Source: Escherichia coli
GTDB lineage: Bacteria; Pseudomonadota; Gammaproteobacteria; Enterobacterales; Enterobacteriaceae
Length of the DNA stretch: 64,000 nucleotides
Assembly (NCBI RefSeq): GCF_002854065.1
Contig: NZ_CP024147.1
Strand: one strand, 5' to 3'
The position numbers were made by a program. This document shows positions 32,101 through 38,100 of the stretch, piece after piece (positions within the stretch are counted from its first letter, which is position 1; every line of letters begins with the position of its first letter).

Positions 32101-35100
32101 TGATGTTATCGAAGAAAATGGTCAGGTTTTTGCCGAACTGGAGTCCCGTAATTGTGGCAAACCGCTGCATAGTGCGTTCAATGATGAAATCCCGGCGATT
32201 GTCGATGTTTTTCGCTTTTTCGCGGGTGCGGCGCGCTGTCTGAATGGTCTGGCGGCAGGTGAATATCTTGAAGGTCATACTTCGATGATCCGTCGCGATC
32301 CGTTGGGGGTCGTGGCTTCTATCGCACCGTGGAATTATCCGCTGATGATGGCAGCGTGGAAACTGGCTCCGGCGCTGGCGGCAGGGAACTGCGTAGTGCT
32401 TAAACCATCAGAAATTACCCCGCTGACCGCGTTGAAGTTGGCAGAGCTGGCGAAAGATATCTTCCCGGCAGGCGTGATTAACGTACTGTTTGGCAGAGGC
32501 AAAACGGTGGGCGATCCGCTGACCGGACATCCTAAAGTGCGGATGGTGTCGCTGACGGGCTCTATCGCCACCGGCGAGCACATCATCAGCCATACCGCGC
32601 CGTCCATTAAGCGTACTCATATGGAACTTGGTGGCAAAGCGCCAGTGATTGTTTTTGATGATGCGGATATTGAAGCAGTGGTCGAAGGTGTACGTACATT
32701 TGGCTATTACAATGCTGGACAGGATTGTACTGCGGCTTGTCGGATCTACGCGCAAAAAGGCATTTACGATACGCTGGTGGAAAAACTGGGTGCTGCGGTG
32801 GCAACGTTAAAATCTGGTGCGCCGGATGACGAGTCTACGGAGCTTGGACCTTTAAGCTCGCTGGCGCATCTCGAACGCGTCAGCAAGGCAGTAGAAGAGG
32901 CGAAAGCGACAGGGCACATCAAAGTGATCACTGGCGGTGAAAAGCGCAAGGGTAATGGCTATTACTATGCGCCGACGCTGCTGGCTGGCGCATTACAGGA
33001 CGATGCCATCGTGCAAAAAGAGGTATTTGGTCCAGTAGTGAGTGTTACGCTCTTCGACAACGAAGAACAGGTGGTGAACTGGGCGAATGACAGCCAGTAC
33101 GGACTTGCATCTTCGGTATGGACGAAAGATGTGGGCAGGGCGCATCGCGTCAGTGCACGGCTGCAATATGGTTGTACCTGGGTCAATACCCATTTCATGC
33201 TGGTAAGTGAAATGCCGCACGGTGGGCAGAAACTTTCTGGTTACGGCAAGGATATGTCACTTTATGGGCTGGAGGATTACACCGTCGTCCGCCACGTCAT
33301 GGTTAAACATTAAGTTAGATGTTAGTGGCTGTTATAGGACGGCCACTATCGTTTTAGGTTCTGAGTTTAATGGCGGTTAAGTATTAGAATGATTACATTA
33401 ATAACTAGCGTAAAAATTAGGCTAAATGTTTGATGGCGATTTTTCATCCTGTCACAGTTGATTAGCATAAGGCTTTAGAGTATCGTTATTAAACTAATAA
33501 TTTATAAGTAGAAGTATTAACAATGAAAGTTCAATTGTACAAATTCACGGAAGATAAAAATAAAACCCTTACCTTCAGATGGACGAAAAAACACTTTGAG
33601 TTTTGTATGGATAATAAAATCTTTTTAAATCATAAGGGGAAGAAGTCGTATAAAGAAAGGAATTTATTTCTTTTCTCAAAAGGTGACAAGATAACAATTG
33701 AAGATAATGTTATTGCTGAAGAATATTCAACAATGCCTGTAAAAAATTTCTCCAGTGTCGGCGCTTTTTCATTTCCGACCTGTCATTTTTCAGGGAATAT
33801 ACGTATAGGTCGATTTTGTAGTATTGCATCAAATGTAAAAATAATGGGTGGAAATCATCCTTTGAATCGTTTTACTACTCACATGATGACTTATAACGGT
33901 GAATTTGATAAGTTTGCTATGAGTGAGTTTGAACGTAGCTGGACATTGAAACCATTCATTACCAAACCTGAAAATCCGATTATAGGAAATGATGTCTGGA
34001 TAGGAAATGATGTTGTATTGAAAGGTGGCATCGCAATAGGTGATGGTGCTGTTATTGCTGCCAATTCCGTTGTTACCAAAGATGTGCCCCCATATGCCAT
34101 AGTTGCAGGAGTTCCTGCAAAAATAATCAGATTTAGGTTTGATTCAAATGTTATTGATGAACTGTTGAGAATAAAATGGTGGAATTATAACTACTCAGAT
34201 CTTCCGGATAATAACAAGTGTGATGATATAAATTATTTTGTTGAAGAGATGAATCGATTGATATCAAATGGAAATATTCAAGAGAGGGACTATAAAAAAT
34301 TCAATCTTTCTGAGGTATTCAGAGGCCTATAATTATCTGTTTTGCATGATAAATGGGCAAGATAACCAGGGCGGGGTTTGCAATTTCAATGGGGCAGCGT
34401 CATCAAGGAGGTTGCAAACATCCTGCCATGCATATACTTTACGCCATCTTTTTATATTTGCGTTATTCCTTGAAAGTATAAAGCATTTATAGACTCCCGC
34501 GCGTATAAAGTATTCATGATAGAAAAATGTGAAAACAAGATTCCCTTTGAGTCAGTAAGCTGTTTGTATAGACGACAGTAGGGGGATGTTTTCTACTCAT
34601 TTCAATGTAGATGCCAGCAAAAAGAAGTAAATATTAAGGATAATGTTGTAAACCTGGAGAGTATGAGAAGATCTTGCGTACTGTCAGAGAGTTGATTTCT
34701 CTGACAGTACGTGCTGCGTGCAAAATCACTACATCAAATAAACCAGCCAAATCTCATAGAGATAAGAGTAAACAAACCAACAGCAGCAAAGACATTTATC
34801 AGTACTACAGTTCTACTGGAAACATTCATTTTTGCCACCTTTTATCATTGCCCCTATGTGTATAGTACGGGTTAAGAAAATCCGCAATAATACTCATTCT
34901 GAAGATGGATAAGGGCAAGTTGCTGTTTGATGTTTTTTTCTCAAACCGGTTAAAAAACTTGATGCACGTCAAAAAATGACGCATATTTGCGCGCGTTTTA
35001 TTCATCTGGCTGGACGCCCGTACATGTCTCTCTATCAACATATGCTTGTTTTTTATGCGGTTATGGCAGCAATCTCATTTCTTATCACCTGGTTTCTTTC

Positions 35101-38100
35101 TCACGATAAGAAACGCATCCGTTTCTTAAGCGCCTTTCTGGTGGGGGCAACATGGCCGATGAGTTTCCCGGTGGCGCTGTTGTTTTCACTGTTTTAAATC
35201 TTACTCACTGGCTTGACGGCACCACGCAGACTTATATCATTTGGATGAATCGATAAATTTCACAAGTGGCTAAGGAGAAAGTATGTCGCATCTGGATGAA
35301 GTCATCGCGCGCGTGGATGCCGCGATTGAAGAGAGCGTCATTGCCCATATGAACGAATTATTAATCGCCCTGAGCGATGACGCGGAGTTAAGTCGGGAAG
35401 ATCGCTACACCCAGCAGCAACGTCTGCGCACAGCGATCGCCCATCACGGTCGCAAGCATAAAGAAGATATGGAAGCTCGCCACGAACAGTTAACCAAAGG
35501 CGGCACCATCCTGTGATTAAAATGAGCGTCTGGCCACCAGCCAGGCGCCAACCACAAGTAAAATTGCGCCACAAATTGGGCCGATCAACGCCCGTAGTGG
35601 TACGCCATGGCTGCGGAAGATATCCAGCACCAGACCGCCAATCAGCTGGCTGGCGACCAATACCGCAATAGTTGTCGCCGCTCCCACATTCTGATATCCG
35701 CTGATACTGGCGAAGACAAAAAACGATCCCAGCAAGCCAGGTATAAGTGTCCACCAGCGCACGCTGGACACCAGTTCGCCAAACCCCGCCATACCTTGTT
35801 TAAACCATAAAATAGAAACAAAGAGCACAATCCCCACCAGTGAGTTCAGCAACATGGCGATGAGAATGGTAGAGGAGGTCTGGGTGATGCGCACCATCAG
35901 CGTGTTCTGGACTACCAGACCAATTCCGGCGGCAATCAAAAAGGCAAGGGTGAGCGACTGATTCATCCAATCACGTCCGGTTCAGTGCGTTCGTCGAGTT
36001 GCAACTGCATAAATGTCAGATCCAGCCAGCGCCCAAATTTAGTGCCCACCTGCGGCATTTGTGCGGTGACGACAAATCCCAGCGACTGGTGCAGATGCAG
36101 CGAGGCCTGATTTTGCGATTCGATCCCGGCGACCATGACATGCTTCCCGCAATCCCGCGCTTCATCAATCAATCGGCTTAACAATTTACGCCCCAGACCT
36201 TTGCCCTGATGATCGGGATGGACATAAACCGAATGTTCCACGGTATGGCGAAAACCATCGAAACTACGCCAGTCGCCAAATGAGGCATATCCCGTCACTA
36301 CGCCATCTTCTTCACTTACCAGCACCGGATAACCTGCTATGGTCCGCGCTTCAAACCAGGCAATGCGGTTATCTGCATCCACCGTTTGGTCATTCCAGAT
36401 AGCCGCCGTATACAACACGGCGTGGTTATAAATTTCCGCAATGGCAGCACAGTCGGCTTTGCGGGCAAAACGGATGGACATGTCTGGCCTCAATAAAATA
36501 ATGATGATGATGTTATCAATACTATCGAAAACAGCCCGAAGCAACGGATTCCTCGATGAAATTATTGCGTGTTGCAGAGGGGATGTGACGGCTGCAAACA
36601 AAACCAATCCCGTGAGCCTGCTACTATTGATGGATTCATGCCAAAAGCACAGGAGAGCATTATGGGGCAACAAAAGCAGCGTAATCGACGTTGGGTTCTG
36701 GCCTCGCGTCCACATGGCGCACCAGTTCCGGAGAATTTCCGTCTTGAAGAAGATGATGTCGCCACACCGGGTGAAGGACAGGTGTTACTGCGCACAGTTT
36801 ATTTGTCCCTGGACCCGTATATGCGTGGACGTATGAGCGATGAGCCATCTTATTCACCGCCGGTTGATATTGGCGGCGTGATGGCCGGCGGTACGGTGAG
36901 CCGTGTCGTGGAGTCGAATCATCCTGATTATCAGCCTGGCGATTGGGTGCTGGGCTACAGTGGATGGCAGGACTATGACATATCCAGTGGTGATGATCTG
37001 GTGAAACTTGGCGATCATCCGCAAAATCCATCGTGGTCGCTGGGTATGCTGGGGATGCCAGGCTTTACCGCTTATATGGGGCTGCTGGATATCGGTCAGC
37101 CTAAAGAGGGCGAAACGTTGGTGGTAGCTGCGGCGACAGGACCAGTGGGGGCGACGGTGGGGCAAATCGGCAAACTTAAAGGTTGCAGAGTGGTGGGGGT
37201 AGCCGGTGGCGCGGATAAATGCCGCCATGCTACCGAGGTGTTAGGCTTCGATGTTTGCCTTGATCACCACGCGGACGATTTTGCCGAACAACTGGCGAAA
37301 GCGTGCCCAAAAGGTATTGATATCTATTATGAAAACGTGGGCGGTAAGGTATTTGATGCAGTGCTACCATTACTTAATACATCTGCGCGCATTCCCGTTT
37401 GTGGCTTAGTGAGCAGCTATAACGCTACAGAGCTACCACCCGGTCCGGATCGTTTACCCCTGTTGATGGCAACGGTGCTGAAAAAACGTATTCGCTTGCA
37501 AGGGTTTATTATCGCCCAGGATTATGGTCATCGCATCCATGAGTTTCAGAAGGAGATGGGGCAATGGGTGAAAGAGGATAAAATCCACTACCGCGAAGAA
37601 ATTACTGACGGTTTAGAGAATGCGCCACAGACGTTTATCGGCCTGCTGAAGGGTAAAAACTTCGGCAAAGTGGTGATCCGCGTGGCGGGTGATGATTAAA
37701 GTTTCAACGGCGGCGTAAGCCGCCATAAAAATCCAGGCAAAAAGCTTAATTTCAGCTTTAATTAACTAACCACGTTATTGTTATGCTGCTAATAACAACA
37801 AAGGTAAGTGGTTTATGATTATTCACTTTAATACACCAGGTGAACTCCTTCTGCCATGCAGGCAGGGTTGGACAGAAAACACGCGAAGGAATTAAAATGC
37901 CTGGAACGGGAAAAATGAAACATGTCAGTTTGACTCTGCAGGTTGAGAACGACCTGAAACATCAGCTTAGTATTGGCGCACTAAAACCTGGCGCACGCCT
38001 GATTACTAAAAATCTGGCGGAGCAATTAGGTATGAGTATTACACCTGTGCGTGAAGCATTATTACGTCTGGTTTCGGTGAATGCGCTTTCTGTCGCACCA

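Follow-up and report, generated by a model that had tools for sequence, protein, structure and literature searches.

The analysis of a 64,000-nt stretch of an Escherichia coli genome (contig NZ_CP024147.1; this whole stretch is hereafter called the window) indicated that a perfect palindrome just past the stop codon of yncL, a gene for a small membrane protein, is probably the 3'-terminal RNA stem-loop of a short (ca. 180 nt), monocistronic, sigmaS-driven yncL mRNA that is read from the minus strand and whose synthesis ends by Rho-dependent termination. The features on which this reading draws are given below.

34677..34711, minus strand: stem-loop in the 3' untranslated region of yncL, with a 14-bp perfect stem and a 7-nt loop; proposed guard against 3'-exonucleases.
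34674..34674, minus strand: putative 3' end of the mature yncL mRNA (...CAGUACG-CAA-3'), orthologous to MG1655 position 1517039 and transferred from K-12 by colinear offset.
34628..34673, minus strand: C-rich, G-poor tract just past the hairpin, a candidate Rho-utilisation (rut) region that holds GATCTTCTCATACTCTCC (34673 down to 34656) and would be removed from the mature RNA.
34734..34829, minus strand: yncL coding sequence, 31 aa (NCBIfam NF000537 YncL, 72.5 bits against a cut-off of 35).

A repeat search located the arms of the palindrome at 34677-34690 (CGTACTGTCAGAGA) and 34698-34711 (TCTCTGACAGTACG), which are 14 nt each, 100% complementary and 7 nt apart. When the whole window was scanned, no other perfect short-loop inverted repeat was as long. 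Stems of at least 14 bp occurred in none of 30 first-order Markov shuffles of the window, and the palindrome is thus not a product of chance; the mean count of stems of at least 12 bp in the shuffles was 0.03. The second-longest repeat of this kind in the window lies at 260-289 and has an 11-bp stem (GATGTGGACTG, an 8-nt loop and CAGTCCACATC). A 49-nt segment folded as minus-strand (yncL-sense) RNA gave -23.6 kcal/mol (z = -5.6), and the same segment folded as plus-strand RNA gave -26.7 kcal/mol (z = -6.3). The stem starts 22 nt 3' of the yncL stop codon. It is preceded on the minus strand by GCACGCAGCA, without an A-tract, and is followed by CAAGATCTT, in which 3 of 9 nt are U; the tail on the plus strand is TGCTGCGTG. 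There is no T-run after the stem on either strand, and neither strand has the ca. 5 or more U within ca. 8 nt of the hairpin that were taken to indicate an intrinsic terminator. The palindrome was not called as a terminator when consensus terminators and promoters were scanned for, and an Rfam scan of 33000-36000 with E values up to 5 gave no match at the hairpin, the sole match in that interval being a chance-level one to SraG (18.9 bits against a gathering score of 50). A small plus-strand open reading frame of 10 codons (ATG at 34663) runs into the hairpin; it was dismissed because its Shine-Dalgarno-like GGAGAG is only ca. 1-2 nt from the ATG. A preliminary description of this region had reported a perfect 14-bp inverted repeat with a 7-nt loop ca. 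20 nt beyond the stop of a 31-aa minus-strand reading frame with a strong Shine-Dalgarno sequence, taken as yncL, and the 57-aa OrtT ca. 200 bp away on the plus strand. It had also remarked on the missing T-run and concluded that the repeat is not a canonical intrinsic terminator. The present results agree with it on all of these points.

The distribution of the palindrome was surveyed by a blastn search (word size 11) of 5426 complete E. coli genomes with a 53-nt query centred on it. The palindrome was present in 5411 of them, with a median of one place per genome and a maximum of two. An AT-rich insert next to the palindrome in the window, described below, was carried by 1158 of the 5426 (21%). 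These counts indicate that the palindrome is a single-copy element of the core E. coli genome; it is not specific to the insert and does not belong to a repeat family. A repetitive extragenic palindromic (REP) or miniature inverted-repeat transposable element (MITE)-like family was accordingly rejected on the median of one place per genome. The six E. coli alleles that were sampled share an invariant 13-bp core stem and vary only in the loop or flanks; the K-12 allele has a 13-bp stem and a 9-nt loop.

To look beyond the species, a YncL profile was seeded from nine matches among representative proteins, and 50 yncL loci were retrieved from contigs at one genome per species, a set outside which S. 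enterica subsp. enterica fell. A hairpin followed the yncL stop in nearly every one of the 50 loci. Hairpins that could be aligned as homologues were found in Escherichia (E. coli lineages, E. albertii, E. whittamii and cryptic clades), in Citrobacter and in Salmonella arizonae and diarizonae. A 14-pair structure was then tested for covariation on a 26-sequence alignment of these three genera, with 500 shuffles and with the 3' partners slid by 1-3 columns as a comparison. Standard pairs filled 83.5% of the cells, and 32-52% when the partners were slid. Changes on both sides were seen in 8 of the 14 stem pairs, and in none of the 500 shuffles did the covariation score or the share of paired cells come up to that of the real alignment. 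Within Escherichia, four outer pairs switch while staying paired: 33-71 (C-G/U-A), 34-70 (G-C/A-U/C-G), 35-69 (U-A/C-G) and 38-66 (U-A/A-U), the last of these having gone from U-A to A-U in E. albertii. At pair 40-64 the genera differ: Escherichia has U-A, whereas Citrobacter and Salmonella have G-C. Over the same homologous hairpins, the loop drifts in sequence and in length (3 to 10 nt). Pairing that is kept while the loop drifts points to selection on base-pairing, and it does not agree with a dimeric protein that reads half-sites at a fixed spacing.

In K-12, the base of this hairpin coincides with an abundant transcript end. The 3'-end sequencing (Term-seq) data of Adams et al. 2021 (supplementary file 1, PMC7815308) contain a minus-strand 3' end at MG1655 1517039 in all three condition sheets, with average reads of 75,265 in lysogeny broth (LB) at an optical density (OD) of 0.4 and 536,300 in LB at OD 2.0. 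When 1517039 was placed on the K-12 sequence, the RNA was found to end in ...CUGACAGUACG-CAA, 3 nt past the last stem base. Adams et al. 2021 labelled this end only 'antisense patD', after the gene that converges on yncL, and the hairpin has no name in the literature found. The seven-fold rise of the end towards stationary phase agrees with the behaviour of the Salmonella orthologue, whose transcript was originally listed as a short RNA, STnc1110, and whose expression is sigmaS-dependent (PMC5437024). The same study scored a region of Rho termination on the minus strand whose best coordinate, 1516753, is ca. 290 nt beyond the hairpin and antisense to patD (supplementary file 2, PMC7815308). 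Upstream and downstream coverage there was 220 and 9 without bicyclomycin, and 106 and 72 with it (Rho score 16.6, p = 5e-21), although this score compares 800-nt coverage windows and its resolution is coarse. Moreover, patD-yncL is listed among the 165 convergent gene pairs of E. coli whose transcription overlaps (ExcludonFinder, PMC12288877), which fits a polymerase that passes a hairpin lacking a U-tract. Directly after the hairpin, the 80 nt of the window hold 18 C and 8 G, and within the C-rich tract the motif GATCTTC[CT]CA[CT] is kept across Escherichia and Citrobacter.

Based on these results, we propose that the 3' end of the yncL mRNA would be formed as described below. RNA polymerase would pass through the hairpin, since no U-tract is there to release it. 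Rho would load on the C-rich, G-poor tract directly downstream and end transcription within the next few hundred nt, at a site that would be antisense to patD in K-12 and inside the AT-rich insert in the strain of the window. Exonucleases working from 3' to 5' would then shorten the heterogeneous tails as far as the foot of the 14-bp stem and leave a precise, protected end ca. 3 nt past it, and the outcome would be a protected yncL mRNA of ca. 180 nt. The trimmed transcripts presumably begin at the yncL promoter, and the stability that the hairpin would confer is likewise expected from this model.

Such an arrangement has precedents throughout the E. coli genome. Dar and Sorek 2018 (PMC6061677) described, genome-wide, Rho-dependent transcripts whose precise steady-state 3' ends lie directly after stable stem-loops that have neither U-rich tails nor A-tracts and are followed by more C than G, and they presented evidence that such structures protect against polynucleotide phosphorylase (PNPase) and RNase II. 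The yncL hairpin agrees with this class in every sequence-level and mapping feature. Its stem-loop is stable (-23.6 kcal/mol) and stands just upstream of a precise end (3 nt past the stem in K-12), it has no U-rich tail and no A-tract, downstream read-through increases when Rho is inhibited (in K-12, as seen in 800-nt windows), and C exceeds G directly downstream (18 to 8 in 80 nt). It differs from the class in that its stem is unusually long and perfect and covaries clearly across genera, and in that protection is here presumed. The yncL hairpin is therefore an ordinary element of a well-described class, whose 3' end has already stood, unattributed, in a published table.

The 3' end might alternatively be made by the hairpin itself, acting as an intrinsic terminator that lacks a U-tract and frees RNA polymerase, possibly in both directions (patD and yncL), with Rho as a backstop. 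What happens at this site in other lineages bears on this alternative. In Klebsiella, Raoultella, Pseudescherichia, Pseudocitrobacter, Pluralibacter and several genomes labelled Enterobacter, unrelated canonical terminators with an A-tract, a GC hairpin and a U-tract (for example, AAAAAAGCAGCC-loop-GGCTGCTTTTTT) stand at the same distance past the yncL stop. Unrelated canonical hairpins in the same place suggest that the task of defining the yncL 3' end is conserved, while the device that performs it differs by lineage. The Escherichia and Citrobacter hairpin thus shares with canonical or bidirectional intrinsic terminators between convergent genes its site, ca. 20 nt past the yncL stop, and an apparent 3'-end-defining job, but it differs from them in having no A-tract and no U-tract, and in K-12 the downstream termination is Rho-dependent. 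In Salmonella arizonae and diarizonae, the homologous hairpin is extended and has a U-run behind it, 6-7 of the first 9 nt past the stem being U. STnc1110 of Salmonella (PMC5437024) is the orthologous short sigmaS-dependent RNA that encodes YncL, and a homologous hairpin core (GGCGGGGAGG...CCTCTCCGCC) lies in the same place; unlike the hairpin in the window, that of the Salmonella subspecies sampled is intrinsic-terminator-like on account of its U-run. The shared position with the bidirectional-looking terminators of other genera, the Salmonella U-run and the closeness of the K-12 end to a very stable stem are all in keeping with termination by the hairpin. Against it, only 2-3 U are found in the 9 nt past the stem on either strand, no A-tract precedes the stem, the consensus scan was silent, and bicyclomycin lifts downstream coverage ca. 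17-fold relative to upstream in K-12. Furthermore, the overlap of patD and yncL transcription (PMC12288877) implies read-through, and no plus-strand Term-seq 3' end was found between 1517000 and 1517099 in K-12 under the three growth conditions (PMC7815308). Termination by the hairpin itself is thus considered unlikely, although it is possible that some hairpin-driven termination or pausing takes place alongside the Rho-dependent route, which weighs to that extent against the proposed reading.

Other considerations also weigh against reading the palindrome as the protected end of a Rho-terminated yncL mRNA. The Rho score attests that minus-strand signal is lost in a Rho-dependent manner at some point downstream of yncL; it gives neither the exact site of that loss nor an origin at the yncL promoter. 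All transcript data come from K-12, whose allele has the 13-bp stem and 9-nt loop and no insert, and the insert-carrying strain of the window is presumed to behave in the same way. The 80 nt after the hairpin contain on average ca. 22 C and 12 G in the 27 Escherichia and Citrobacter loci without a U-tract, as against ca. 19 and 21 in the loci with canonical terminators; this contrast speaks for the proposed reading, but it is confounded by phylogeny and by downstream coding content. Finally, the palindrome folds equally well on the plus strand, and its sequence by itself does not settle which strand acts.

This last point raises the question of whether the stem-loop protects, primarily or in addition, the 3' end of the convergent patD mRNA, a role that would not exclude one in yncL. 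The surroundings of the palindrome are needed to judge this, and the two features concerned are given below.

33315..34638, no strand assigned: AT-rich insert of ca. 1.32 kb, roughly 27-40% GC against ca. 53% in the flanks; context that lies outside the hairpin element.
33523-34332, plus strand: gene within the insert for a CatB/Vat-like hexapeptide O-acetyltransferase of 269 aa, annotated in RefSeq as 'CatB-related'.

In K-12 and O157, patD and yncL are convergent and separated by a gap of 96 nt that contains the hairpin, and in K-12 the hairpin is only 40 nt past the patD stop. The window is a piece of E. coli chromosome whose gene order is ydcV, patD, the insert, yncL, ortT, ydcY, ydcZ, mnaT and curA, and the palindrome is 1.36 kb from patD. 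The proximity in K-12 speaks for a role on the patD strand, as does the more stable plus-strand fold (-26.7 kcal/mol, 16 pairs including G.U). The non-Watson-Crick positions are split: in two Escherichia lineages, E. albertii and Escherichia sp. E1V33, A.C mismatches in the yncL sense are G.U wobbles in the patD sense, whereas Salmonella has G.U in the yncL sense, which favours the yncL strand. Counted over the alignment, the comparison of G.U with A.C came to 13 against 15 cells, most of them from poorly aligned outer Citrobacter positions. The absence of a plus-strand Term-seq end at the hairpin in all three conditions argues against patD, with the qualification that patD may be poorly expressed there. 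In the window, a terminator-like plus-strand hairpin (TAGTGGCTGTTATAGGACGGCCACTA) followed by the T-rich TCGTTTTAGG stands at 33323-33348, inside the insert and 10 nt past the patD stop. The structure at the patD 3' end in insert strains thus appears to differ from that in K-12; patD has its own hairpin and T-rich tail far from a palindrome that is still perfect. The same is seen in most Citrobacter, in which patD is 0.4 to more than 2.3 kb off and the hairpin stays beside yncL. On balance, it seems improbable that the stem-loop serves patD, whether mainly or in addition.

More generally, the patD-yncL gap measures 96 nt in K-12, 1.4 kb in the window and 0.4 to more than 2.3 kb in Citrobacter and Klebsiella species, and it is enlarged downstream of yncL at many of the retrieved loci (L005, L011, L014-L028, L035, L040-L042 and L053 in our numbering). 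The gap is a hot spot at which variable DNA collects. In every case the additional DNA is on the patD side, beyond the hairpin and the ca. 45 nt that follow it. Hairpin and downstream tract always stay with yncL, while foreign DNA separates patD from the hairpin in 21% of E. coli and in most Citrobacter. In several insert lineages, a degenerate copy of the patD 3' end (CCTTAAT[AG]T...) adjoins the conserved tract.

A palindrome near an insertion-prone gap could also work at the level of DNA. It might be an operator to which a dimeric regulator binds, or it might be the site of recombination or attachment at which the AT-rich insert ends. The pattern of differences between alleles seems at first to favour such a site. 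The allele of the window differs from the O157 allele without the insert (L002) by 12 substitutions, all of them at 34628-34693, from the junction to the loop; the 200 nt beyond, in which yncL and its promoter lie, are free of them. The pattern resembles a recombination tract that stops close to the hairpin. On the other hand, the insert junction is at 34628-34638, 39-49 nt to the left of the stem start, and is ambiguous within a different sequence, an imperfect direct repeat of 10 nt that duplicates the last patD codons; one copy, AAACATTAAG, is at the patD stop, and the other, AAATATTAAG, occupies 34629-34638. The palindrome is carried without the insert by ca. 4250 genomes. Strain VE-T9 has the loop allele of the window and no insert, and loop allele and insert are thus separable. 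An operator is opposed by the unfixed spacing of the half-sites (loops of 3 to 10 nt) and by outer half-site sequences that are free to change as long as pairing is kept, and the single copy per genome gives no hint of a REP or MITE-like family. A LexA box has 8 nt between CTGT and ACAG; here the spacing is 19 nt, and this candidate was rejected. We regard a DNA-level role as very improbable.

The three roles put forward in the preliminary description can thus be told apart. An RNA stability element is supported by the K-12 3' end, by presence in nearly all of the E. coli genomes and by compensatory substitutions in three genera. A protein-binding operator, at odds with the variable half-site spacing and the changing outer stem, is not supported. 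The AT-rich insert that it noted nearby is real, but the comparison of strains did not bear out the palindrome as its boundary. As for the observations that were to have told against its account, transcript ends away from the hairpin and a lack of conservation among strains, the opposite was found in both respects, for the transcript ends in K-12.

The insert is unrelated to the palindrome. The product of 33523-34332 scored 125 bits against the NCBIfam Vat model (cut-off 300) and 106 bits against the CatB model (cut-off 350). Since these scores are far under both cut-offs, the acetyltransferase is not a recognised resistance gene. Two of the retrieved contigs carry names from distant taxa. L034, a 459-bp contig labelled Sporosarcina luteola, has a Klebsiella-like yncL sequence, and L049, a 1576-bp contig of a Collinsella metagenome-assembled genome, is identical to the allele of the window, acetyltransferase insert included. 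Both most likely reflect contamination or mis-binning in public assemblies.

The start of the transcript and the divergent neighbour of yncL are defined by the following features.

34835..34841, minus strand: Shine-Dalgarno sequence of yncL, AAGGTGG, read from the sequence 5 nt ahead of the ATG.
34859..34887, minus strand: predicted sigmaS-type yncL promoter, with a -35 element TTGCGG (34887-34882), a 17-nt spacer and a -10 element C-TATACA (34865-34859).
35024..35197, plus strand: ortT coding sequence, a GhoT-family orphan toxin of 57 aa (Pfam PF10753, 97.1 bits against a gathering score of 22.1; RefSeq 'orphan toxin OrtT').

The GGTGG of the Shine-Dalgarno sequence is kept across genera. In the predicted promoter, the CTATA core is invariant in 13 of 13 sequences from eight genera and C-TATAC is found in 12 of them, Pluralibacter reading TATAT; the -35-like TTGCGG is conserved mainly in Escherichia, Citrobacter and Salmonella. 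From the position of these elements, the yncL transcript would start near 34852, giving an RNA of ca. 179 nt. The start of ortT is 194 bp from the yncL start codon, the same spacing as in the OrtT paper (PMC4344625). The divergent pair, with a nearly constant spacing of ca. 190 nt, is kept in nearly all 50 loci, in Escherichia, Citrobacter, Salmonella, Klebsiella, Raoultella, Pseudocitrobacter, Trabulsiella, Pluralibacter and Intestinirhabdus. The genes that flank the pair vary, ydcY being present only in Escherichia. A diverged yncL-like group whose proteins end in ...SKYNWF (L031, L033, L043 and L051) has no ortT nearby, and in E. coli VE-T9 (L003) an IS3-family element breaks yncL, so that the N-terminus is lost, with the hairpin kept. 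The leader of ortT contains a small GC hairpin (ACGCATATTTGCGCGCGT, 34979-34996) with T-runs on both sides, which the scan called terminator-like on the minus strand. In K-12, a weak plus-strand Term-seq 3' end at 1517357 (848 reads), which is not Rho-dependent, lies 32 nt before the ortT ATG (PMC7815308). This hairpin may act as an attenuator in the leader, or else the toxin mRNA may be processed there.

Two wider roles were considered, regulated read-through against patD in the manner of an excludon and a functional link between yncL and ortT, which are nearly always found as a pair, and we hold either to be unlikely. As to the first, the hairpin, instead of being just a passive cap, may be the hinge of a sigmaS-controlled convergent excludon. 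If so, the abundant stationary-phase yncL transcript would pass the hairpin, which lacks a U-tract, until Rho stops it ca. 0.3 kb into the sequence antisense to patD; how much antisense RNA silences the putrescine-catabolic patD would be governed by Rho activity together with the conserved GATCTTCYCAY tract; and repeated foreign insertions between the hairpin and rut tract and patD, as in the window, would uncouple this control. The overlapping transcription of patD and yncL resembles that of the convergent excludons (ExcludonFinder, PMC12288877). However, the definition of an excludon calls for mutual regulatory interference, patD-yncL is known by overlap alone, and the insert parts the two genes by 1.4 kb here. 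As to the second, membrane damage or depolarisation has been reported for OrtT (PMC4344625) and YncL (PMC12542507), production of YncL having been found to depolarise the membrane (PMC12542507). The divergent yncL and ortT may thus form one membrane-depolarising module, in which the yncL RNA or peptide modulates the 'orphan' toxin.

The practical value of these findings is small: a strong Term-seq end mislabelled 'antisense patD' is assigned to yncL, and the yncL transcript is defined as an RNA of ca. 180 nt. They may be of use to builders of Rho-dependent 3'-end predictors and to students of dosage-sensitive small stress peptides. For the biology of this gene across its hosts, the yncL locus offers a natural example of one 3'-end position that would be filled in two ways, by a Rho-dependent protective stem-loop or by a canonical terminator, with textbook covariation.

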